A stretch of DNA of 64,000 nucleotides. It comes from Candidatus Heimdallarchaeota archaeon. Its GTDB lineage: Archaea > Asgardarchaeota > Heimdallarchaeia > JABLTI01. The stretch is from positions 288,001-352,000 of the forward strand of contig JABCTZ010000032.1 of NCBI GenBank assembly GCA_018238155.1. The letters run 5' to 3'. The translations under genes were made by a program, and so were the position numbers. Positions 10,454-63,999 of this stretch are shown piece by piece; the stretch's first letter is position 1, and every line of letters begins with the position of its first letter. The notes beneath the pieces were generated by a model. That model made no database searches and was not told where the DNA came from. It worked only from the letters and a program-made list of their open reading frames with translations.

Positions 10454-10562
10454 TGGTGGGCCCAGCCGGATTTGAACCAGCGACTTCCCGGTTTTTGAGA
10501 ACTGCAGTCTCGACTGTTTTTCTTATCAGCCGAGCGCTCTAACCAAGCTGAGCTACGGGCCC
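10454..10562 (-). tRNA. trnI: tRNA-Ile(GAT) with a 31-nt intron at 37/38 (10493-10523) and encoded CCA
   Basis: GGGCCCG TA GCTC AGCTTGGTTA GAGC G CTCGG CT GAT A [intron] A CCGGG AAGTC GCTGG TTCAAAT CCGGC TGGGCCC A CCA. Confidence 0.95.
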
Positions 10563-15286: not shown

Positions 15287-16606
15287 CTATATTCTAATTA
15301 TTTTTTTCTTCTTTAATTGAATGTATTTTGAGAAAATCTTTTTTAGCACTTGATAATCTGTCAAGATTCCTTTTGGACCTGATTTTACTTTTCGAAGTCT
15401 AAGTGGAACTGAATCCATTCTATATGCAGTACCTGTTGATTCAACACCTGAAATTGTTACTGGAAAAACTACTTCAGCTAAGCGTGTTGTAGGTGTTTCG
15501 TATGGATCTAGTGCAATAACAGGTATCTGAGAGAAATGGTTCATTACTTTTCTAGGAGAATTTCCGACTGGATCTGAAGCAACAATAAATGCTGCATCAG
15601 CTTCTTGTTGAGATAATACACTGGCCATAGAAAATTCTCCGGGATTATATTGAGGAAATCCTCTTGTAAGAGAAACTGCAAATGGATAACCAGATATCCA
15701 AGTAATTACATTTTGAGCTCCCGTGACATTATAGTGACCTCGAAGTGGCATAACATAGAATTTTGTATGTTCATTTAAATCGCGAACTAAGCTTAATGCA
15801 GCATCTACATTTCTATGTTTGCCTTTTGTAGTAGCTAAACCCAAACCAAAGAAAATCACTCCATGTTTTGCCTTTTTCATTATTTCAGCTAATTGTTGAA
15901 TTTTCTCTATCGGAATGCCTGCGACTACATTCTCTGTTATTTCTCTGCCCCGAAGTATTGCTCTTAGAGCACTAATGAATTCAAAATCACCATCTGGTTC
16001 GATTTGTATGAAATGATTAGCTAATTTTGCCGTTTCTGTAAAACGTATGTCAATTACCACAACAGTCCGTTCTTGAAATCCTTTTTCTCGAAAATAACCT
16101 CTTGGAAAAGTTGTATATCTACTCATATGTCTTGGATGTGCTTCCATTGGATTACAACCAAGATAAATAATGAGGTCAGATCTGTTCCTGATTTCTCCCA
16201 AAGTACAACCAGCTAAACCAATTTCTTGTATACCCATAACAGAAGGTCCATGACAAACAGAAGGACAATGATCCCAAATTGCTCCTGCTTCTTCAGCTAA
16301 TTTTATGCTTTCTTTGTGAGCTTCAGCTTCTGTTGAACCGAATCCATAGAAGATTGGAAATTCTGCTTCAAAAAGTATTTCTGCCGCTTTCACAGCTGCT
16401 TCATCATAACTTACCGGGGTGAATATACCGTCAATTTTTATCAATGGAGAGAGGAGTCTTTTTCCATCTTTATTCCCTGTGATTTTAACTGCTCCTAATT
16501 GGCAAGCATTTTTTACTTCAATTATTTCTTCCTTTTCTAAAACAACTTCAATATCATCACAGAGACTTCCACAGAAAGGGCAAACTACATCTTTAACTAC
16601 TTTCAA
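15287..16606 (-). CDS. fwdB: Formylmethanofuran dehydrogenase subunit B (Cys form)
   Basis: CPFCGSLCDD, SVCHGPS, GCNPMEAHPRHMSRY, LRGHYNVTG, GTAYRMD. Confidence 0.95.
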   Translation of the reverse strand: MKVVKDVVCPFCGSLCDDIEVVLEKEEIIEVKNACQLGAVKITGNKDGKRLLSPLIKIDGIFTPVSYDEAAVKAAEILFEAEFPIFYGFGSTEAEAHKESIKLAEEAGAIWDHCPSVCHGPSVMGIQEIGLAGCTLGEIRNRSDLIIYLGCNPMEAHPRHMSRYTTFPRGYFREKGFQERTVVVIDIRFTETAKLANHFIQIEPDGDFEFISALRAILRGREITENVVAGIPIEKIQQLAEIMKKAKHGVIFFGLGLATTKGKHRNVDAALSLVRDLNEHTKFYVMPLRGHYNVTGAQNVITWISGYPFAVSLTRGFPQYNPGEFSMASVLSQQEADAAFIVASDPVGNSPRKVMNHFSQIPVIALDPYETPTTRLAEVVFPVTISGVESTGTAYRMDSVPLRLRKVKSGPKGILTDYQVLKKIFSKYIQLKKKKIIRI

Positions 16607-18927: not shown

Positions 18928-20654
18928 GAATTACTAACGGTTATCTTGTCGATCCTGCTAATGGTATAGTTGGGGAGAACAAAGATGTTTTTGTTATCGA
19001 TGGGAAAATTGTAGAAGAAAGTGAAATTCGTTCAGATATGAAAATCAAAGTTATAGATGCTTCTGGTAAAGTTGTAATGCCTGGTGGAGTTGATATTCAC
19101 GCCCATATTGCAGGTCCCAAAGTCAACTCTGGAAGGTTACTAAGACCAGAAGATCATATTATTGATCCATTAAATAAGACTGCTGTTGCTCGTTCAGGAA
19201 CTGGTCGTTCGGTTCCATCTACATACTACACTGGGTATGCATATGCTCGCTTAGGATATACTTTTGCAATGGAACCAGCAATGCCGCCTCTAGAAGCACG
19301 ACATACACATGAAGAGTTAATGGATATTCCAATTATTGATAAAGGCGCCTATACTCTTTTGGGGAGTAATTGGTTTGTCTTAGAACGCATTAGTGAGATG
19401 AACAAAGATGAAATGGCTGCTTTTGTTGCTTGGTTGCTCAAAGCCTCTGGTGGATATTCAATTAAATTGGTAAATCCCGGTGGAGAAGAAACTTGGGCAT
19501 GGGGTCAGAATGTTCACTCTTTAGATGATTTAGTAGGTTCGTTCAAAGCTACTCCAAGGAAAATTATTAAAACATTGGCTGGAGTAAATGAACGATTATC
19601 ACTACCTCAAACAATTCATTTGCATACCAATAATTTGGGCATTCCAGGTAATCATGATGTTACTTTGGAAACTATGAATGCAGTAAAAGGCATTAAACCT
19701 GCAAAAGGTAGAAAAACAAATATGCATTTAACCCACATTCAATTTTCTTCGTACGGTGGCAAGGGTTGGGAAGATTTCTGTTCTGAAGCTCCAGAGATAG
19801 CTCATTATATCAATAAGAATGATCATGTTTCTTGTGATGTCGGTCAAATTATCTTTACTAATACTACAACAATGACTGCTGATGGTGCATGGGAATGGAC
19901 TTTGAGAGGAATCACTGAACATCTAGCATGGTCACCTCGCTCTGGTTCAAAATGGATGAATACTCAAGTGGAACTTGAATCTAGCTCTGGTGTTGTACCT
20001 TATATCTTCAGAAGAAAAAATCCAGTAAATGCTATTCAATGGGCTATTGGGTTAGAGTTTCTCTTAATGATTAAAAACTTAAACAAAGTAAATATTTCAA
20101 CAGATCATCCAAATGGTGGTCCATTTACTTTCTATCCAAAAATTTTCAGCTGGTTAATGAGTAAAGATGCTCGAGATAGAATGCTTTCAAGAACAGATAA
20201 AGCAGCAAAAGAAAAAACATCTTTAGCAGAACTAACTCGCGAATTTTCATTGGCAGAAATAGCTCAAGTAAGTAGAGTCAGTGCTTCGAAAATACTCGGT
20301 TTGAAAAATAAAGGTCACTTAGGTATCGGTGCAGATGCAGATATTGCTATCTATGATTTCAAAATACCTTTAGATGAGTTAAATAAAAATTACAAAGCTG
20401 TGGAAAAAGGCTTTGGAAAAGCTGCATACACAATTAAGGATGGAGAATTGGTTCTTAAGGATGGAGTGATTATCTCGAGTCCGTTCGGTAGAACTTTTCG
20501 AGTTGAAGCAAATATACCTGAAGATTGGACTCTCCAAATCAGGGATGCAATTGAGGATCGATTCAGAAAGCATTATACCGTGAGCTTGGCAAATTATGCT
20601 GTGCAAAAAGAATATTTCCCAAATGAGGAATTGATCACAACTGAACTTCAATAA
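18894..20654 (+). CDS. fwdA: Formylmethanofuran dehydrogenase subunit A (start uncertain; ATT 18894 proposed)
   Basis: MPGGVDIHAHIAG, RPEDH, KLVNPGG, HLHTNNLG, STDHPNGGPF. The conserved N-terminus ITNGYLVDPANGI.GE..DV..DGKIV lies upstream of the first ATG (19038). Confidence 0.92.
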   Translation: MSSKKKKSKGLRITNGYLVDPANGIVGENKDVFVIDGKIVEESEIRSDMKIKVIDASGKVVMPGGVDIHAHIAGPKVNSGRLLRPEDHIIDPLNKTAVARSGTGRSVPSTYYTGYAYARLGYTFAMEPAMPPLEARHTHEELMDIPIIDKGAYTLLGSNWFVLERISEMNKDEMAAFVAWLLKASGGYSIKLVNPGGEETWAWGQNVHSLDDLVGSFKATPRKIIKTLAGVNERLSLPQTIHLHTNNLGIPGNHDVTLETMNAVKGIKPAKGRKTNMHLTHIQFSSYGGKGWEDFCSEAPEIAHYINKNDHVSCDVGQIIFTNTTTMTADGAWEWTLRGITEHLAWSPRSGSKWMNTQVELESSSGVVPYIFRRKNPVNAIQWAIGLEFLLMIKNLNKVNISTDHPNGGPFTFYPKIFSWLMSKDARDRMLSRTDKAAKEKTSLAELTREFSLAEIAQVSRVSASKILGLKNKGHLGIGADADIAIYDFKIPLDELNKNYKAVEKGFGKAAYTIKDGELVLKDGVIISSPFGRTFRVEANIPEDWTLQIRDAIEDRFRKHYTVSLANYAVQKEYFPNEELITTELQ

Positions 20655-31725: not shown

Positions 31726-33255
31726 ATGACAATTATATTTTACCGAAGAAAAATGCTCTCAAAAGAACATCGACTCACAAGGAAAGCTTACAAAACACTG
31801 ATAGCTGATCTGCCAGATGATGAATTAGAGAAAGCACTAGAACAAGTAAGGCAAGTAACAAAACCAACCAAGAAAAAACCACTTCAATTAACCGCTAAAG
31901 TAAAGATTGAAGTAACAAAGGAGCAAGAAAAAATACTTTGGATACTAGCTGAAAATTGTCGATTAATTCATTACTTTGCAAATAAAGAGCGAAAAGAGTG
32001 GTGGGATAAAAACAAACATTTACCAAAGAAGAAAAGGGACAAGAAGTCAAAACCAACTTACAACAAACAATCAGCACAATTGCCAAAATTAAAAGAACAG
32101 TACCCTCGCTACAAGCAAAATCATTCCAAAACATTGCAAGGCATACTCAAACAGTTAGAAGCAGAATATAAATCATTTTACGCTTTAAGAGATAACGGAG
32201 ATTTGGATGCTAAACCACCAAGATACAAAGGAAAAAAATATTTTACCACCATGCATTACAATCAAAAAGGATTCAAGATTATAGGGAATAAGATAACCTT
32301 GACTCATTTTTATCCTACAAAAAAAGCAGAAAAAGTTGATTTAGCTTTTGAAATACAAGGAAAATTCACCTTCACCGGAAAAAAAGTCAAGCAAGTGACC
32401 ATTTACCAAAAGCAAAAAACAAAGGAGTACTACCTTTCAATAATTTACGAGGAAAACACCCTAGAGTATTACGACAACGGTATTTACCAGACTTTAGATT
32501 TGGGTGTGATCAACCTTGTTGCGGCAACGAATAGCCATGCAGGAAAATCTTTTATTATCAAAAATAAGCGCGTGGACAAATATTGGCAACGAAAAATAGA
32601 AGAATTGCAAAGCAAAAGAGATCATTGCAAAAAATACTACACCAAATGGCACTGGTACAATAATAAAATGTGGAAAATGATACGAAAACAAGCAAACCAG
32701 TTTAAGGATTACCAACATAAAATAAGCAAGAAAGTCGTTGAGAACACCAGAGCAAACACTATCATTATCGGTGATTTGAATGTTAAAGCAATGAGTAAAA
32801 GCAAAAAAAGAGATAAAAAGAACGATAAGAGCAAACATAGAACCATGCAAAGTACTGGTTCCCTTGGTCGTTTCGCTCGATTCTTAACCTACAAGGCACA
32901 GAAGGTAGGTAAAAAAGTAATAAGGATCAGTGAACGAGATACAACCAAACTATGCACCTACTGTATGACAAAGGAGAACAGAGCGCTCTCTGAACGAACT
33001 ATTAGTTGTGATTGTGGGCTAGTAATAGATCGAGACACAAGCAGTTCAGGAACACAAATGCAGCGCTTCCTCGCTTTGCTAGCACTATCACAGAAACGCC
33101 TTGTGGTCAGGCAACGATTCGTGAAAGATCTTCGGGTCTTTCGCGGAAAGTTTTTTGCGACACACAGCCAAACGTCAAACGAAAGTTCCTCCTTTACCGG
33201 AGTTGGGCGGACTCGCAGCGAATCAAACGTTAACAAAACATTCTTTAGAAGTTAG
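31726..33255 (+). CDS. tnpB: RNA-guided endonuclease TnpB (IS200/IS605 family, solo)
   Basis: YNKQSAQLPKLK, KPPRYK, RuvC-I LDLG, IIIGDL, FLTYKA, ERDTTKLCTYC..CDCG zinc finger, DRD; likely start at 31753. Confidence 0.93.
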   Translation: MTIIFYRRKMLSKEHRLTRKAYKTLIADLPDDELEKALEQVRQVTKPTKKKPLQLTAKVKIEVTKEQEKILWILAENCRLIHYFANKERKEWWDKNKHLPKKKRDKKSKPTYNKQSAQLPKLKEQYPRYKQNHSKTLQGILKQLEAEYKSFYALRDNGDLDAKPPRYKGKKYFTTMHYNQKGFKIIGNKITLTHFYPTKKAEKVDLAFEIQGKFTFTGKKVKQVTIYQKQKTKEYYLSIIYEENTLEYYDNGIYQTLDLGVINLVAATNSHAGKSFIIKNKRVDKYWQRKIEELQSKRDHCKKYYTKWHWYNNKMWKMIRKQANQFKDYQHKISKKVVENTRANTIIIGDLNVKAMSKSKKRDKKNDKSKHRTMQSTGSLGRFARFLTYKAQKVGKKVIRISERDTTKLCTYCMTKENRALSERTISCDCGLVIDRDTSSSGTQMQRFLALLALSQKRLVVRQRFVKDLRVFRGKFFATHSQTSNESSSFTGVGRTRSESNVNKTFFRS

Positions 33256-55025: not shown

Positions 55026-55688
55026 TTGAAGTATAAGAAACTATTACCTATCACAGCAACGATTGCAATTACAATACTATTGTTTGTAAATGGTGTTGGA
55101 AAAACTACCGCTGAAACGCCATTGAATAATGTAATAGTATATATGGTACCCGATATAGTTGAACCACATGTAGGTCAATTAGTAAATACTACAGTTGTTT
55201 TTAGAAATGCACTCAATAGTACAGATAATTTGTATAATACTACAATAAGATTTGATGCAACGAGTTCATTCAATATCTCAGATGTTTATGGTGTTTCAAG
55301 TAATATGACCTTTTACAATTCCACAGATTACTATTTAGATGTAAATAATACAGAACCATTATTCTATTGGGATGTAGATTCTGTTAACGTCACCTGGGCA
55401 AATATATTGCCTGATACATTTCAATCATTCTGGTTTATTGCGAATTGTACAGAAGAAGGTTATGTTGGAATTAATAATTTGAATGTTACTTACTACCATA
55501 ATAATGAAAGGAAATCATTTATTGGGCAAGCGTTTTCATTTGAAATCTCTCCAATACCTTCAACACCACGTTTGGATGTTCCAATTAGATCACCTCAAAA
55601 TTGGTCTTGGTGGTTGATTGGTGGAATAATCATTGGTGTTCCATTGGTTGTTATTATAATTACAAGAATTACATTATGGAAACGTTAA
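55026..55688 (+). CDS. TRAP-beta (SSR2)-like Ig-fold type I membrane protein
   Basis: Signal peptide; NVTWANILP..S..GY..VTY; SPQNWSWW + TM GVPL + basic tail. Confidence 0.55.
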   Translation: MKYKKLLPITATIAITILLFVNGVGKTTAETPLNNVIVYMVPDIVEPHVGQLVNTTVVFRNALNSTDNLYNTTIRFDATSSFNISDVYGVSSNMTFYNSTDYYLDVNNTEPLFYWDVDSVNVTWANILPDTFQSFWFIANCTEEGYVGINNLNVTYYHNNERKSFIGQAFSFEISPIPSTPRLDVPIRSPQNWSWWLIGGIIIGVPLVVIIITRITLWKR

Positions 55689-55707: not shown

Positions 55708-56802
55708 TCACTTTTCAATTATTTTCTTGTATAATGATTCATATTGAGGAATGATTTTATCAGGATGGAATACTTCCTTAGCTCGTTGAGCTGAAGCCTT
55801 TCCTAATTTCTTTCTTAAAGTTTCATCTTCAATCATAACGTTCATATATTTAGCTAAGGCATCAATATCTCCTGGTTCAACAACAAAACCAGTTTTTTCA
55901 TGCTCTACAACTTCAGGTAAACCACCTGCATTTGAAGAAATAACCGGTATATTGCATGCCATAGCTTCTAAAGCTGCTAAACCAAAGCTTTCTTTTTCAG
56001 AAGGAATGACAAAAACATCAGTAAAACATAAAACACGAGGAACATTTAGAAGACTTCCTCTGAATGTAATCTTGTCATTAATACCTAAGGATATTGCTAA
56101 GTCTTGGCAATATTCTCGTTCTGGTCCTTCTCCAATCATTTCTAATCTGACATGATCAAATTTCTCTGCTTCGATTGCAAATGCTTTGACAATATCTGGT
56201 GAGCGTTTCACTTTTCGAAAGTTAGAAACATGACAGAAAACAACTTCCTCTTTTTCTGGCTTTTTAATTTTGGAAAATTTCTTGGGATCTACGAAATTAT
56301 ATATAACTTCAATGTCTTTTTCCATATCATAATTATCAACTACGAATTGTTTCATCCATTTTGATACTGTTGTTAATGCATCATGATTGTTTAAACTATT
56401 AACTAAAATCGGTTTGTAAGCATCATCGAGACCTAGAAGATGCATGTCAGAACCATGAATTGTCGATATGATTTTCGCTTTATTATTACTCAATTTTGCA
56501 AGATACAAGGATGTTGCATGAGGGATTGCGTAATGACCATGGAGAATATCCAATTCATGTTCATTAACTAATTTGTGCAATAGAGATGCTAAAATAATGG
56601 TGTATGGTTTGTACTTGAAAAGAGGATATGATAAAATGTTTACTTCATGAAAAATAAAATCCTCTTCCAGTTTTAATCTCTCAGGTATTTGATAGGAAAT
56701 AAAATGAACTTCATGTCCTCTTTTTTGAAGTTCTAATCCCAATTCAGTTCCAACAATACCACTACCACCAAAAGTCGGATAATTGATTATGCCAATTTTC
56801 AT
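55708..56802 (-). CDS. bshA: N-acetyl-alpha-D-glucosaminyl L-malate synthase
   Basis: MKIGI.YPTFGGSG..TELG, YPLFKYKPY, HYAIPHA, HGSD, HVSNFRKVKR, ESFGLAALEAMAC. Confidence 0.93.
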   Translation of the reverse strand: MKIGIINYPTFGGSGIVGTELGLELQKRGHEVHFISYQIPERLKLEEDFIFHEVNILSYPLFKYKPYTIILASLLHKLVNEHELDILHGHYAIPHATSLYLAKLSNNKAKIISTIHGSDMHLLGLDDAYKPILVNSLNNHDALTTVSKWMKQFVVDNYDMEKDIEVIYNFVDPKKFSKIKKPEKEEVVFCHVSNFRKVKRSPDIVKAFAIEAEKFDHVRLEMIGEGPEREYCQDLAISLGINDKITFRGSLLNVPRVLCFTDVFVIPSEKESFGLAALEAMACNIPVISSNAGGLPEVVEHEKTGFVVEPGDIDALAKYMNVMIEDETLRKKLGKASAQRAKEVFHPDKIIPQYESLYKKIIEK

Positions 56803-56841
56803 CTTAATATCTATCCTCGAATATAATTAATCATTATTCAT

Positions 56842-57525
56842 TTATTTATTTATTATTGTTTTCCATTTATCAACCTTTAACGAATCTCTTATCATAAAGG
56901 CTTCTCCAAATGAAACATCAATTAATGAACCATAATAGACACATCTTTCTACCAAAGGAAATGGAAGGTATACTTTTGAAAATTCTTTAAATTGAGATTT
57001 GTGACTCATGATTGCTTCTTTTTTTCGTTCAAAAAAATCACTTACATCCATAATAAATGATGGAGTAAATTGACCATTTAATTCATAATAGATAAGTTGT
57101 TGAATTTTATGTTGGGGATATTCAAGTTTGAATTTTTTCAATTTTGCATAATGAGCTGCTTTTGTGATTATCTCAGAACTAGCAACGTGATCTGGGTGTC
57201 TATCAATCCAATAAGGTGCTAAAACAATTTTTGGTTGATATTGGCGGATTTTCTTTGCTACAGCAAAAATGTCTTCTTGGGAAATATCTAAACCAAGATA
57301 TCCATCAGGTAAACCTAGATTTTCTCTAAATTCCACGCCAAGTTTTTTTGCCGCACTTTGCGCTTCCTTCAAACGAATCTCCTTTGTACCAAGTGTACCC
57401 ATTTCACCTGCTGTTAAATCAATAATACCTACTTTCAATCCTTCTACAACAGCTTTTGTTATTGCTCCTCCGGCACCAAGCTCTGCATCATCCGGGTGCG
57501 GTCCAAAAACTAAAACATCCAACAT
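56842..57525 (-). CDS. bshB1: Bacillithiol biosynthesis deacetylase
   Basis: HPDDAELG, DLTAGEMGT, DRHPDH, HKSQF, GEAF; lies between bshC and bshA. Confidence 0.9.
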   Translation of the reverse strand: MLDVLVFGPHPDDAELGAGGAITKAVVEGLKVGIIDLTAGEMGTLGTKEIRLKEAQSAAKKLGVEFRENLGLPDGYLGLDISQEDIFAVAKKIRQYQPKIVLAPYWIDRHPDHVASSEIITKAAHYAKLKKFKLEYPQHKIQQLIYYELNGQFTPSFIMDVSDFFERKKEAIMSHKSQFKEFSKVYLPFPLVERCVYYGSLIDVSFGEAFMIRDSLKVDKWKTIINK

Positions 57526-59117
57526 TTCAATACCACATGTTTTCCTGGTTGATCTTTTGACATGAGATTTCTCATACAATCTAGGAGATTTAATGAGTAC
57601 TTGTTAAGATATTGGAAGATATTAAACATTCGTTCTTGAGGTATATCACTTGGAAATAAATAGGCTCTAGTTTTAGTTAATTGATTTGTCAAAAGTTGAT
57701 TATCATTTTTAACGTATTTAATATACATCTTCTCAATATTCTTTAATTCCTTCATTATAGATTTCTTGCGATACTGTACTCGTGATCCAAGTTCCTTATT
57801 ATAATCATTAAGTTCTATATTCATACGATCTAATGTTTCAGAAATATTGCTGAAATATCCTTGTAATTTTTGTTCGTTCTCATTTGTAACGAGTTTTGTG
57901 CTCAATCTATTCAAATCACGGAGCTCTGTAATTGAAAACTTATATTTCTCAATTATTTTGTTAATGTGTTTTTCAATTACTGTTGCTCCCATTCTAAAAA
58001 CGATATTAGGTTGGGTTAAATCAAATTCCTTATATAAATCTTTGATTTGAATATGATATCCAATCTCTGAAGGACCTCCCACAAAAACATGTGTTGGAAT
58101 CATTAAATCTTGAGCAAGAGGACGAAAGATAGCATTGGTACTGAATTGTTCAGGATGAGCTTGAACTTCATTAAGAATTTCTTCTCGAGTAAATGATTTG
58201 CCATCAGATAATTCATATATTCCATTTTCTTTCAGTGTTATTGTTAATCTATTTAATTCTTCATCAATGTAGAATAATCCAACAACATTCTCTTTCTTAT
58301 GCATTTTAGGTTTATAACCTAAATCTGTCAATCTATTGGTAGTTTTTTGGAAGATAGTATTATATTTTATCGGATTGCTAAGGACAGCTGTAAAATAATC
58401 CTTCAAATGAGGTCGTAGAATTTTCGGTTCCAGTATAATAAGTCCCCATTGTCCCATTAAGTAAGAAAGTGTCCTGCTAAAGAATTCACCCCATTTCTCT
58501 GACTTTTTGAGTATGCCACTTAGTTTTTCAAAAATAGAATCAGTAAATTCCGTTTCTGTTAATGAATTTTTCATTTTATTGATAAGAGAATCTAACTTAC
58601 TGTGTTCAATTAGAACATTTTCTAAACTTTTTCCTAACAAAGCACTACTATCGAACTTAATCTGCTCAACATCATTGTTTTTATTTAAAACCCAAATATT
58701 ATCTACTTCTTCTATATCATGATCTTCAGAAGCATTCCAAAAAAGGGGTATCAGCTTTACATCATCTGTAGAATACTTTTTAGCATAATTTATTGCCGAG
58801 AATGTTTTATAGATTGTATACATATGTCCTGTAAACAGACCTGATTGTTGTCCAGTAATAACGAATTTTATCTTCTCATTTTCAATTGATTCAATATTTT
58901 CAAAGACCATACTTTGAGCATCAATTGATTTATTATATTTCATTAAAATATCTTTTAATATTCCTCTATCTCCTCGATATTTGACTGGATGCATTTTATC
59001 ATAAATGCCTCCAAAGAATTTTGACATTGGTTCTTTTCTATAAATATAATCTAATAACATTGAATTTGGATACATCAATTTTAAATCCAATAAATCAAGC
59101 TTTACTTCTTCTGCCAT
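57510..59117 (-). CDS. bshC: Bacillithiol biosynthesis cysteine-adding enzyme
   Basis: VITGQQ.GLFTG..YT.YK, FWNASEDHD..EV, S.NAIFRP..QD, GGPSEIGY, PQER. Confidence 0.92.
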   Translation of the reverse strand: MAEEVKLDLLDLKLMYPNSMLLDYIYRKEPMSKFFGGIYDKMHPVKYRGDRGILKDILMKYNKSIDAQSMVFENIESIENEKIKFVITGQQSGLFTGHMYTIYKTFSAINYAKKYSTDDVKLIPLFWNASEDHDIEEVDNIWVLNKNNDVEQIKFDSSALLGKSLENVLIEHSKLDSLINKMKNSLTETEFTDSIFEKLSGILKKSEKWGEFFSRTLSYLMGQWGLIILEPKILRPHLKDYFTAVLSNPIKYNTIFQKTTNRLTDLGYKPKMHKKENVVGLFYIDEELNRLTITLKENGIYELSDGKSFTREEILNEVQAHPEQFSTNAIFRPLAQDLMIPTHVFVGGPSEIGYHIQIKDLYKEFDLTQPNIVFRMGATVIEKHINKIIEKYKFSITELRDLNRLSTKLVTNENEQKLQGYFSNISETLDRMNIELNDYNKELGSRVQYRKKSIMKELKNIEKMYIKYVKNDNQLLTNQLTKTRAYLFPSDIPQERMFNIFQYLNKYSLNLLDCMRNLMSKDQPGKHVVLKCWMF

Positions 59118-59360
59118 TAATTTCACTTCGTAATACAATAATAATAACCCTTGAGAATATTCATTAAAGATTTGGTTAACTTATTTAACCTTGAAATTCT
59201 TTTTAGAAATGAACTGTATAAATAATTGCAGTTCTTCTAGTTAAAAAGTAACTAACTCTTAACCTATTAAAGTTAGCACAATCTGAGTTTAAAAGATAAG
59301 AAATTTTTAGCGAAAGGAAATCATAATGATGTCCTTCCGGTTAAAAAGAAAAGAAAAAAA

Positions 59361-62294
59361 TTAGAAGTAAGATTTCAGAATCTTCATAATTGAAGGTCCA
59401 TCTAAGACCTGTTTAACTTCTAATTCACGACCCTCTGAAGTAATTACTTTACCTGTTCTATTCAACCAAGCAGGTGAAGGCAAAACTAAATCGGCATTCT
59501 TGTTTTCACCCATTGATATTGTGAATCCTTTGAACTTTTTATCAGATGATCCAATAACAAGATAATTCTTTGCTTTTGGAACCTCTTTCAAACCGAGTTG
59601 TATAAGACCTACTTCATTTAGTCCTTTGTGCATAATGATTGTTGGAATGTCTCCGGGCTGTGCTGGAGCATTAACAATGACAATGTCTGGGTTTTCCTTG
59701 GTAATGATTGCTCCTTGTTTCTTAGCTATGTGAACAAAGGGTTTCAAAACAGGGTAGTCTGATAAATCAACGTCCAATTTTATGCGTTTGCTAGTAAAGA
59801 TAGATGCAAATTTGGTTGTAGAAATACCTTTATCGTAGATAGCTCCAATAGAGAATTTATGTTTCGATGCAAATTTCATTAACTCTTGTGCTTCGTCATT
59901 TGTCACACTTGGTGTTAAAACAATGGCTAAACTTCCGAGATGATCCTTAATAATAGTTTTAGCTTCATCATCAGAGATTTCTTTGAACTTGCTACCAACC
60001 TTCTGCATTGGTTTCTCTACACTTTTCTCCCAACTTCTGCCGAATCTTGGTTTATCACAAACCAAACCGTGATTCCAAGAATCATCGATAGTTGAAACAT
60101 TCACTGGAATTCCCTTGTAGATATCAATATTCATTTCACAACCCATTCCGCAATCATTGCAGACAGTTGGTTTAGGAGTAACATTCCAAGGACCATCTTT
60201 TGGATATGGAGTTTTAAGTGCAAATGCACCTGTTGGACAATCATCAACAAATTGACCAATAAAATCACCTTTAACTTCACCGAGTTTGGTTCCGGGTGGC
60301 GGGCCATTTTTTGTTGAAAATCCTCTGTTGAGATTATCAATTAATCCTTCGCCAGTTATTTCATGGGTTAAATTGATACATCTACCACACAAGATACATT
60401 TGTTATTATCAAGAATAACATTGGGATGGGATTCATCAATCACATCTGATTGTAGTTCCCCTTCAAAAGTATCTTGTTTAGCATTATACATCATTGAGTA
60501 TTCTTTCAATTTGCAATCAAAAGAATCAAGACAACCACAAGACATACACCTTTCAGTTTCTTTTAAGATATCTTCTTCTGAATGAGTTAACTCAACTTCA
60601 TCAAATGTTTTTGCGCGTTCATTTGCAGGAAGGAGCTTTGGTTTTGCTCTTTCTTGTCGTTTTCTATCTTTGTAATCTTCTTCAGTAACTTTCTTCCAAT
60701 GATTATATGGATAGTATTTTAGAAGGAATTCTTTGAGGTTTTTATCAGAATAGATTTCATCTAGATGTTCTGAAGGCTTTCGAATAATTTCTCGGATTTT
60801 AGGGAGAGTACCTTTAAGATAAAAATCAATCATTTGTGCAGCATTTTTAGACGTTGCAATAGCTTCAATGACAGTTGCTGCGCCAATTGCTACATCACCA
60901 CCAACGAACACACCTGGAAGATTAGTTTCATAGGTGATTTCATCATATTTTGCTCCGCCCCAGTTATGATGTTCCAAACCATGTTGAGCTAAGAGATCAT
61001 AATCGGGTCTTTGTCCGATTGCAAAAATGACAGTATCAACTTCAACACAATAATTTGAACCATCACAAACAATCGGTCGACTCCGACCACTTTCATCAGG
61101 TTCACCAAGCTCCATTCTAACTAATTCGACTTCTTGGATTTTTCCTTCACCAATTATACCGATTGGATTGGAAAGAATAAGAAAATTAACACCTTCTTCT
61201 TCTGCTTCTTCGATTTCAACTTGTCGAGCTGGCATTTCTTTTCTGGTTCGCCTATAGGAAAGTGAAACGTTTGCTCCGAGTCGTACGCAAGTACGTGCAA
61301 CATCCATAGCGCTATTGCCTCCTCCAACAACCATAACATTTTCACCAATATCGATTTTCTCACCCATTGCTGTTCGTTTTAAGAAATCGATTGCATCCAA
61401 AACACCTGGTATTTCGCAATTATCTACTCTTGGTTTGTAAACTTTCCAAGCACCAATGCCGACAAAAACGGCATCATGTTTCATTTGTAGCTCTTCAAGT
61501 GTAATATCAACACTGACCTTTGTGTTAGTTTTTACTTCAATACCTGTATTAATTACAGTAGCAATATCTTTGTCCAAAATAGCTTTTGGTAAACGATATT
61601 CTGGTATACCATAACGCAACATACCGCCAAGTTCTGGGAGAGATTCATAGATAGTAACTTTATGTCCTTTTATTCGTAAATAGAAAGCCGCTGCAAGACC
61701 CGCAGGACCGCCACCGACTACTCCAACACTTTTACCAGTCTCTTTTGGAATGTCAGGCATCCAAGGACCATGTTCTAAATCATAATCTGCTGCAAATCGT
61801 TTTGCTTCACGAATTGCTACAGGACCTTCGACAAGATTCCTTCTACAAGCATCTTCACAGAACGCCGGACAGACACGACCAAGTGATGCTGGTAAAATGT
61901 AATCTTGTTTCATTAAAGCAACTGCTTCATGATGTTTGCCCATAGCAATTAATGCAAGATAGTTTTGAACTTCACTTTTAGTTGGACACCCATCATTACA
62001 AGGACCGATACAATCTCCATAATGATCAGAGAGCATCAATTCAAGAGCAGTTTTTCTACTATTAATCACAACATCATTATTGATATTTATCTTGTCGTTT
62101 TCTCTTGGATAGGTTGAACAAGCAGGTAATAGACGTCCGTTGATTTCAACTAAACATAGTCTACAAGAACCATAAGGATCTAGCTCTTTTACTTTGCAAA
62201 CTCCCGCAATATGACGGTTGTTTTGCAACAAATAATCCATAATTGATGTTTTTTCAGGGAATTCTTTTTCGTCAGAATTTATTTTAACTTTCAT
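59361..62294 (-). CDS. Multidomain Fe-S flavoprotein (2Fe-2S + GltD-like FAD/NADPH + NuoG-like Fe-S + truncated Mo-bis-PGD fold), NsoC-like
   Basis: GSCRLCLVE, LGRVCPAFCEDACRR, GGGPAG, GGGNSAMD, YRR, RCMSCGC, NKCILCGRC; ATG at 62294. Confidence 0.85.
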   Translation of the reverse strand: MKVKINSDEKEFPEKTSIMDYLLQNNRHIAGVCKVKELDPYGSCRLCLVEINGRLLPACSTYPRENDKININNDVVINSRKTALELMLSDHYGDCIGPCNDGCPTKSEVQNYLALIAMGKHHEAVALMKQDYILPASLGRVCPAFCEDACRRNLVEGPVAIREAKRFAADYDLEHGPWMPDIPKETGKSVGVVGGGPAGLAAAFYLRIKGHKVTIYESLPELGGMLRYGIPEYRLPKAILDKDIATVINTGIEVKTNTKVSVDITLEELQMKHDAVFVGIGAWKVYKPRVDNCEIPGVLDAIDFLKRTAMGEKIDIGENVMVVGGGNSAMDVARTCVRLGANVSLSYRRTRKEMPARQVEIEEAEEEGVNFLILSNPIGIIGEGKIQEVELVRMELGEPDESGRSRPIVCDGSNYCVEVDTVIFAIGQRPDYDLLAQHGLEHHNWGGAKYDEITYETNLPGVFVGGDVAIGAATVIEAIATSKNAAQMIDFYLKGTLPKIREIIRKPSEHLDEIYSDKNLKEFLLKYYPYNHWKKVTEEDYKDRKRQERAKPKLLPANERAKTFDEVELTHSEEDILKETERCMSCGCLDSFDCKLKEYSMMYNAKQDTFEGELQSDVIDESHPNVILDNNKCILCGRCINLTHEITGEGLIDNLNRGFSTKNGPPPGTKLGEVKGDFIGQFVDDCPTGAFALKTPYPKDGPWNVTPKPTVCNDCGMGCEMNIDIYKGIPVNVSTIDDSWNHGLVCDKPRFGRSWEKSVEKPMQKVGSKFKEISDDEAKTIIKDHLGSLAIVLTPSVTNDEAQELMKFASKHKFSIGAIYDKGISTTKFASIFTSKRIKLDVDLSDYPVLKPFVHIAKKQGAIITKENPDIVIVNAPAQPGDIPTIIMHKGLNEVGLIQLGLKEVPKAKNYLVIGSSDKKFKGFTISMGENKNADLVLPSPAWLNRTGKVITSEGRELEVKQVLDGPSIMKILKSYF

Positions 62295-62301
62295 TTGCTG
62301 T

Positions 62302-63999
62302 TCACTCCACATCTATTGCATCAAAACGACAAGCTTGATAACAAGCACCACATTGAATGCATTTATCTTGATCAATAACATGAATGGCTTTCTTATCCCC
62401 TGTAATGGCATCTGTTGGGCATTTTCTAGCACAAGCACGACAACCAGTACAAGCATCACTTATTGTGTAAGTGAGTAATGGTTTGCAAACTTTAGCAGAG
62501 CATTTTTTGTTATTGATGTGTGCTTCATATTCACCTCTGAAATATCGCACAGTCGTTAGAACTGGATTTGGAGCTGTTTGACCCAAACCACAGAGAGAAC
62601 CTGTTTTAACTTTAGGAGATAAATCAAGTAATTTGTCAATGTCTTCTATAACGCCTTCTCCTTTAGAGATTCTATCAAGGATTTCCCATAATCTTTTGGT
62701 ACCAAGTCGACAATAGGTGCATTTGCCACATGACTCTAAAACGGTGAAATCTAAAAAGAACTTCGCAATATCGATCATACAAGAATCGTCGTCCATTACA
62801 ACCATTCCACCGCTGCCCATAATTGCACCGGTAGCATTAATGGATTCATAATCAACTGGTGTGTCAAATAGAGATAATGGAATACAGCCACCAGAAGGAC
62901 CACCCATTTGCACTGCTTTGAGTGGTTTGCCTGATTTAGTTCCTCCACCAATATCTATGAGGATTTCTTTAATGGTCATACCCATTGGAACTTCTACATT
63001 TCCACCACGCTTGATCTTTCCAGCTAAAGCGAAAACTTTTGTTCCTTTGCTCTTTTCTGAACCCATGGCAATATATTTTTGCCAACCATTAAGCAAAATC
63101 CAAGGGACATTTGCCCAAGTTTCTACATTATTAATATTGGTTGGTTTACCTTTGTACCCTTTTGTTGAGGGATAGGGAGGTCGAAGGTTTGGCATACCGC
63201 GTTTGCCTTCAAGAGAAGCAAGTAATGCTGTTTCTTCTCCACAGACAAAAGCACCTGCTCCTTCCATAATAGATAAATCGAAATCAAAACCAGAGCCAAG
63301 AATATCTTTTCCAAGGAAGCCTTTTTCTCGGGCTTGTTTGATTGCGATATCTAATCTCTTTATTGCGAGAGGATATTCTGCTCGACAATAGATGAAACCA
63401 TGATTTGCACCAATCACGTACGCACCAATAATCATTCCTTCTAAAACTTTGTGTGGGTCACCTTCCAAAACATTTCTGTTCATAAAAGCACCTGGATCTC
63501 CTTCGTCAGCGTTGCAAACAATATATTTAGGTTCACCTTGTGCCTGTCTGGTAAATTTCCATTTTAATGCTGTTGGAAAACCTGCACCACCTCTTCCACG
63601 TAAACCCGATTTAGAAAGGACATCAATAATTTCGTCAGCAGTCATTTTCAGAGCTTTTTCAAGCGCCTTGTAACCATCAACCTCAATGTATTCCTCAATT
63701 TTCTCAGGGTCAATATACCCTGAATTTTCTAAAATAATCTTGATTTGTTTTGAGAAAAAATTATCGACATCCCAAACGGTAACTGGTTTGGACTTAAATT
63801 CATCTTTTTTCACTAGAAATTCTTCAACAATTTCTCCTTTGACGATATGTTTATCGATGATTTGTTTCATTTTTTTGGTTGTCAAATCACCGTAAGTGTA
63901 GATCATATCTTCTGTAACAATATCTACTAAAGGTTCACGATAGCACATACCAGTACAACCAACATTCTTAATCTCTAACTCAATACTCTGTTCTTTAAA
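62302..63999 (-). CDS. NuoF/HydB-like FMN/NAD-binding subunit (5' truncated by window)
   Basis: SGLRGRGGAGFPT, NADEGDPGA, GAGAFVCGEETAL, ESCGKCTYCR, two C-terminal 4Fe-4S motifs; frame is open to the window end. Confidence 0.93.
   Translation of the reverse strand, partial: FKEQSIELEIKNVGCTGMCYREPLVDIVTEDMIYTYGDLTTKKMKQIIDKHIVKGEIVEEFLVKKDEFKSKPVTVWDVDNFFSKQIKIILENSGYIDPEKIEEYIEVDGYKALEKALKMTADEIIDVLSKSGLRGRGGAGFPTALKWKFTRQAQGEPKYIVCNADEGDPGAFMNRNVLEGDPHKVLEGMIIGAYVIGANHGFIYCRAEYPLAIKRLDIAIKQAREKGFLGKDILGSGFDFDLSIMEGAGAFVCGEETALLASLEGKRGMPNLRPPYPSTKGYKGKPTNINNVETWANVPWILLNGWQKYIAMGSEKSKGTKVFALAGKIKRGGNVEVPMGMTIKEILIDIGGGTKSGKPLKAVQMGGPSGGCIPLSLFDTPVDYESINATGAIMGSGGMVVMDDDSCMIDIAKFFLDFTVLESCGKCTYCRLGTKRLWEILDRISKGEGVIEDIDKLLDLSPKVKTGSLCGLGQTAPNPVLTTVRYFRGEYEAHINNKKCSAKVCKPLLTYTISDACTGCRACARKCPTDAITGDKKAIHVIDQDKCIQCGACYQACRFDAIDVE

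Follow-up and report, generated by a model that had tools for sequence, protein, structure and literature searches.

The window analysed here (the whole stretch of 64,000 nucleotides (nt) of contig JABCTZ010000032.1, from a Candidatus Heimdallarchaeota archaeon) carries three genes, arranged in the order bshC-bshB1-bshA on the minus strand, whose products belong to the enzyme families of bacillithiol (BSH) synthesis. The first gene of the operon, bshC (57510–59117, 535 amino acids (aa), ATG start as read from the translation), encodes a putative cysteine-adding enzyme. It is followed by bshB1 (56842–57525, 227 aa, ATG start), by family a Zn-dependent deacetylase of N-acetylglucosaminyl-malate (GlcNAc-malate), and by bshA (55708–56802, 364 aa, ATG start), by family a glycosyltransferase family 4 (GT4) N-acetylglucosaminyl L-malate synthase. 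The stop of bshC and the start of bshB1 overlap by 16 nt (57510–57525, minus strand), which likely reflects translational coupling, while bshB1 and bshA are separated by a gap of 39 nt. The same 16-nt overlap recurs in congeners and in a bin from another Asgard family (G286, see below). An earlier note on this DNA had described three co-oriented genes with this overlap, and the open reading frames (ORFs) and their translations agree with it. Its end coordinate, 59117, is the true bshC ATG; the position 59138 given by the ORF finder corresponds to an upstream TTG.

The AT-rich intergenic region located 5′ of bshC (59118–59360, minus strand) probably includes a promoter and a ribosome-binding site, as suggested by its sequence. 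In an alignment with six congeners, a GA(A/T)GTGAA element is kept a few bases 5′ of the bshC ATG, and TATA-like AT-rich boxes are found further upstream. The three genes would be transcribed jointly, probably from this spacer, with bshC and bshB1 translationally coupled. A genome-wide search identified a single BshC-type gene, the canonical one, and a single bshA above cut-off.

We examined family membership with the NCBIfam equivalog models and their curated cut-offs (TIGR03999 for BshA, TIGR04001 for BshB1 and TIGR03998 for BshC). All three proteins passed: BshA with 413.3 bits (cut-off 273.7; residues 1–362 on profile positions 1–374 of 375), BshB1 with 228.1 bits (cut-off 182.5) and BshC with 379.9 bits (cut-off 265.8), margins of 46–140 bits, and the best NCBIfam match was each time the matching bacillithiol model. 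In particular, the model of the paralog BshB2 (TIGR04000) reached only 60.4 bits on BshB1, compared to a cut-off of 195. Consistently, Pfam assigned GT4 domains to BshA, a PIG-L domain to BshB1, and PF10079 (277.6 bits) together with PF24850 (63.1 bits) to BshC, which thus shows the Rossmann-like N-terminal domain and C-terminal coiled-coil domain of its family. The three genes had been called intact from their motifs, a view that these hidden Markov model searches uphold, and the equivalog scores support the assignment to the bacillithiol pathway.

Comparison with known structures gave the same picture. The matches of BshA spanned its full length and comprised 2JJM/3MBO of B. anthracis (293 bits), 5D00 of B. 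subtilis (284 bits) and 6D9T/6N1X of S. aureus; its blocks SNFRKVKR and HG(S/T)D find counterparts in the B. anthracis protein. BshB1 matched 1UAN (TT1542, 168 bits), 2IXD (BC1534, 145 bits) and S. aureus BshB (6P2T, 134 bits). Its PHPDD and RHPDH motifs pair with AHADD and RHPDH of 2IXD (His12/Asp14/Asp15 and His110/His113). The Zn ligands of B. cereus BC1534 are His12, Asp15 and His113 (PMC5790435), and the residues aligned with them are present in the archaeal protein. Residues 8–529 of BshC align with the full-length B. subtilis BshC (4WBD, 169.5 bits).

To look at individual residues, we considered the columns conserved in at least 90% of the homologs outside the Heimdall family (71 homologs for BshC). 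BshB1 kept all 33 of them, including H10, D12, D13, H110, D112 and H113, BshC kept 42 of 48, and BshA 83 of 103, with mostly conservative differences in the latter. The BshC exceptions are P92S, P98H, L99M, F301Y, P374F and G508S.

Taken together, these results make it likely, as judged from sequence, that the locus is a native and functional three-gene BSH synthesis operon in a Heimdall-group Asgard archaeon. By orthology, BshA would join UDP-GlcNAc and L-malate into GlcNAc-malate, from which the zinc deacetylase BshB1 would then release GlcN-malate. BshC would finally add cysteine to GlcN-malate and yield Cys-GlcN-malate, i.e. BSH, with an activated cysteine donor that is unidentified even in bacteria. 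From these assignments we infer the identity of the product as well as a role for it as low-molecular-weight thiol.

Several points weigh against a functional BSH operon. At the residue level, the substitutions P92S, P98H and L99M are unique to the species of the window and fall in the nearly invariant GQQPG...TGPLY motif of BshC, and an 87%-identical relative (L010) retains both prolines. We do not read them as inactivation since positions 92 and 98 vary in other BshC sequences (both in Methanofastidiosia, and position 92 also in B. subtilis). At the biochemical level, in vitro reconstitution of the reaction has not been achieved for any BshC, bacterial enzymes included (PMC4360819, PMC5790435), and in no archaeon has a thiol been measured (PMC7278568). 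Finally, the usual redox partners were not recovered from 11 genomes of the genus (64–92% complete) searched with models of the bacterial proteins only: the Bdr/YpdA model (TIGR04018) gave no match above cut-off (best 92 bits vs 340; 90.6 vs 339.9 in the genome of the window), and BrxA/B (TIGR04191) and BrxC/YtxJ (TIGR04019) were not found at E ≤ 0.001. The control genomes of Bacillus, Thermus and Deinococcus passed the Bdr/YpdA search, and control genomes also gave matches in the searches for bacilliredoxins. A DinB_2 transferase was not found above cut-off in the genome of the window.

With the bacillithiol disulfide (BSSB) reductase and the bacilliredoxins missing from this set, any recycling would need another enzyme. 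The genome does contain candidates, namely thioredoxin-reductase-like proteins, which score about 80–92 bits on the YpdA model, as well as two CoADR/Nox-like flavoproteins (306 and 230 bits). One of these might serve as the alternative recycling enzyme. The earlier proposal of a bacillithiol-type redox buffer therefore holds for the pathway genes and not for the recycling set: because neither the BSSB reductase nor the bacilliredoxins were found, we infer, and do not observe, the use of BSH as a redox buffer.

This bears directly on a first alternative, in which BSH is made but, in this archaeon of anaerobic sediments, acts mainly as a cofactor or carrier (for the buffering of metals or Zn, for Fe-S assembly, or in dealing with sulfur or electrophiles) or is recycled by an archaeal system. 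The partner search fits such a role, as do the known contributions of BSH to metal homeostasis and to Fe-S assembly (PMC5790435) and the presence of the cassette in Bathyarchaeia, Theionarchaea and Methanofastidiosia of anaerobic sediments. Nevertheless, the absence of Bdr/YpdA, BrxA/B and BrxC rests on models of bacterial proteins applied to incomplete genomes, and the thioredoxin-reductase-like and CoADR/Nox-like flavoproteins might recycle BSH. We consider this alternative rather unlikely, while giving it some weight.

We then turned to the relationships of the proteins. The BshC tree (44 rows, a quick LG+G4 tree with SH-aLRT supports only) and the BshA tree (site-heterogeneous mixture model) are both unrooted, and neither contains more than a thin sample of Bacillota and Deinococcota. 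In the BshC tree, the Heimdall family forms a fully supported, long-stemmed clade inside canonical BshC, within a polytomy that also comprises Theionarchaea, a group of Bathyarchaeia and Aerophobetes, and a group of bacteria; the divergent BshC-like proteins of other Heimdall lineages lie far off on a very long separate branch. In the BshA tree, the Heimdall family (support 100), the other Heimdall BshA (95) and all remaining sequences (96) are three groups joining at one node. The family thus occupies a deep branch of its own in both trees, with stem lengths of 0.78–0.85 substitutions per site.

These long stems could be taken to indicate a bacillithiol-like but chemically different product, with another acceptor acid or with another amino acid added by BshC. 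The distance of BshC from the B. subtilis enzyme (169.5 bits over the full length) would be in line with this, as would the 20 of 103 conserved BshA columns that differ, and the substrate of BshC is not settled in general. It is difficult to reconcile with the equivalog scores, above cut-off for all three proteins and far higher for BshA on its own model than on the MshA model (413 vs 79 bits), with the 33 of 33 conserved columns kept in BshB1 or with the mostly conservative nature of the BshA differences. A different product therefore appears quite improbable to us, and BSH itself remains the preferred assignment.

The same trees bear on the origin of the operon. The family is nested in no sampled bacterial group in either the BshC or the BshA tree, and no bacterial donor can be named, since the trees are unrooted and Bacillota and Deinococcota thinly sampled. 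Among most congeners, BshC proteins are only 57–62% identical at a fixed locus, so the acquisition or inheritance is old relative to the genus. The operon had been described in the earlier note as likely an old bacterial acquisition; its age is in agreement with the low identity at a fixed locus, whereas a bacterial origin is not shown by trees in which the family forms a separate deep branch.

The operon lies inside a 362-kb contig of a 4.08-Mb genome bin (90.7% complete, 5.94% contamination). The genes around it are archaeal, including those for a Hef nuclease, formylmethanofuran dehydrogenase A and B, a Roadblock/LC7 protein, a cis-prenyltransferase and TruD, to which a protein with an archaeal pilin N-terminus, a geranylgeranyl reductase and a tRNA can be added. 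The operon and its downstream flanks (the 220-aa ORF, the Roadblock gene at 88–99% identity, UPP synthase and NYN) are common to seven independent assemblies of the genus, which stem from different studies, and the upstream genes to four of the seven. Base composition is that of the host, with an operon GC content of 0.310 compared to 0.328 ± 0.022 for the genome, and GC content at third codon positions like that of the neighbours. The operon is therefore native to an archaeal contig, as judged by the seven-assembly synteny and the native composition, and a chimera or contaminant is excluded for practical purposes. These data agree with the clearly archaeal flanks and the Asgard-type host described at first sight, the host being of the Heimdall group, and they contradict a chimeric assembly at this locus, which the earlier note had named as a possible flaw. 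That bacterial DNA was misjoined or misbinned, as the 5.94% contamination of the bin and the typically bacterial distribution of BSH genes might suggest, has a negligible probability given the contig, the shared flanks and the composition.

Upstream of the operon, on the same minus strand, lies a gene for a 983-aa GltD/NuoG-like fusion (59361–62312), with 2Fe-2S, GltD-like FAD/NAD(P) and NuoG-like 4Fe-4S/molybdopterin-Fe4S4 domains, overlapped by 11 nt by a gene for a NuoF-like flavoprotein (62302–63948, minus strand). This layout is reminiscent of a diaphorase module of the kind found in bifurcating formate dehydrogenases or hydrogenases. The pair is kept 5′ of bshC in 4 of 7 congeners and gives way to NfnAB-like genes in the others; at the L016 and L017 loci, the upstream neighbours are NfnAB-like genes and a glutamate dehydrogenase fragment, with an unchanged bsh operon. 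The upstream redox genes were considered as operon members and rejected because of the 243-nt spacer between bshC and the fusion gene and the swapped neighbours in L016 and L017.

Other features of the window were recorded. Convergent with bshA, a 220-aa ORF (55026–55688, plus strand) has no Pfam match and occupies the same position in all congeners; it evolves fast, with 29–38% identity compared to 88–99% for the adjoining Roadblock gene. The tRNA (10457–10562, minus strand) was detected by Rfam RF00005 with 51.9 bits and not reported by ARAGORN, and its length of 106 nt suggests an archaeal-type intron. Formylmethanofuran dehydrogenase B (15287–16606, minus strand) and A (19038–20654, plus strand) both exceeded their equivalog cut-offs, so that this Heimdall-group genome may have a methanofuran-dependent C1 branch. 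A gene for a TnpB-family RNA-guided endonuclease (NF040570, 161 bits) is located at 31726–33255 on the plus strand. Outside the window, a locus deposited as ‘Candidatus Bathyarchaeia archaeon’ (L014, DATKZI010000037.1) displays the whole operon neighbourhood of the Heimdall genus (Roadblock 95% and NuoF-like 79% identity), and its taxonomic label is probably wrong for that reason.

Within the genus, BshC above cut-off was detected in 9 of 10 other genomes, the sole genome without it being 64% complete, and a shortened copy occurs in a second genus of the same family. Among 400 Asgard genomes, canonical BshC or the operon is confined to this one Heimdall family and to one bin of another family, G286 (L105, G286:C95:1-5331). 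The latter carries bshC-bshB1-bshA, with a BshC 49% identical, on a 5.3-kb contig that is too short to confirm the binning. About 129 other Asgard genomes contain only a far-diverged BshC-like ORF of about 540–600 aa, with about 40–112 bits against TIGR03998, which usually adjoins a BshA homolog in the loci fetched from other Heimdall families. At such loci (L093–L102, e.g. L093:3864-6978), a BshA homolog 35–44% identical to that of the window stands beside a BshC-like gene of 539–584 aa, and the approximately 12 kb of DNA fetched per locus yielded no BshB1 homolog. As judged by sequence features, this pair represents another form of the pathway, one that is as yet uncharacterised.

Beyond Asgard archaea, the bshC-bshB1-bshA order is found in many Bathyarchaeia, in Theionarchaea and Methanofastidiosia, and in several bacterial phyla. 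One further archaeal entry, ‘archaeon isolate SMAG_U14205’ (L078, DATKXY010000204.1), has a BshC that pairs with a Gemmatimonadales sequence with full support, which suggests either that the bin is mislabelled or that a transfer took place recently.

Archaeal BshA and BshC have been noticed previously. Rawat and Maupin-Furlow (2020; PMC7278568, section 13) listed 39 archaeal InterPro hits for each of BshA and BshC, mostly from Asgard archaea, together with no more than two YpdA homologs, and raised the possibility of BSH synthesis in archaea. In addition, the PGAP annotation in GenBank already gives close relatives (87–95% identity) from ‘Candidatus Heimdallarchaeota archaeon’ the names BshC and BshA. 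We regard the operon as real and well formed, though not as new, since that review and these labels precede it; the present analysis is confirmatory, and the novelty initially attached to the locus is not supported. The statement that no archaeal case has been characterised biochemically does remain true, and our literature search found no report of BSH in an archaeon. A 2025 survey restricted to RefSeq reported the complete pathway in no archaeon (PMC12719100), which indicates that the archaeal pathway has not been universally absorbed.

BSH has been measured only in bacteria, and the locus, where a single operon within a long contig holds three canonical genes, offers a clean test case in the group of archaea closest to eukaryotes. 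A broader and more tentative idea, possible although we would not expect it to hold, is that several uncultured archaea of anaerobic sediments (the Heimdall family, Bathyarchaeia, Theionarchaea and Methanofastidiosia) do have BSH as a major thiol, that it spread as one cassette and that it is used or recycled by machinery unrelated to Bdr/Brx. If so, at least one family among the archaea most closely related to eukaryotes would have depended on a thiol different from glutathione. The search for the BshC cysteine donor and for other disulfide reductases could also profit from a compact cassette that lacks its usual partners of bacteria.

The mycothiol enzymes MshA, MshB and MshC of Actinomycetes follow an analogous logic, with a GT4 glycosyltransferase, a PIG-L/LmbE deacetylase and then cysteine addition (PMC7278568). 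However, their models scored far below cut-off on the proteins of the window (MshA 78.7 vs 462.5 bits, MshB 23.9 vs 224), and BshC is no MshC homolog as judged by the NCBIfam searches. Other Asgard families share with the window the placing of a BshA-family gene beside a BshC-like gene and differ in the BshC-like protein itself, which reaches only about 40–112 bits compared to the cut-off of 265.8. In contrast, the cassettes of Bathyarchaeia, Theionarchaea and Methanofastidiosia and of the bacterial Aerophobetes, Hydrogenedentota/Abyssobacteria, Nitrospirales and Planctomycetota have an identical gene order, tightly packed or overlapping. Their proteins are 29–34% (BshC), 35–45% (BshB1) and 37–48% (BshA) identical to those of the window, and these cassettes fall in separate clades in both trees and have unrelated flanks.

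Compared to the BSH redox system of Bacillota and Deinococcota, the Heimdall genus differs in that Bdr, BrxA/B and BrxC were not found in the 11 genomes searched, nor DinB_2 in the genome of the window. The arrangement of the synthesis genes differs as well: here all three sit in a single tight operon (bshC-bshB1-bshA), while B. subtilis has bshA-bshB1 in one operon and bshC in another (PMC4360819). The enzymes themselves nonetheless correspond closely, since the archaeal proteins belong to the same three families and have the same domain architectures as BshA, BshB1 and BshC of B. subtilis, B. anthracis as well as S. aureus, and share with them the Zn ligands of BshB and the GQQ, FWxAxEDHD and PQER blocks of BshC.

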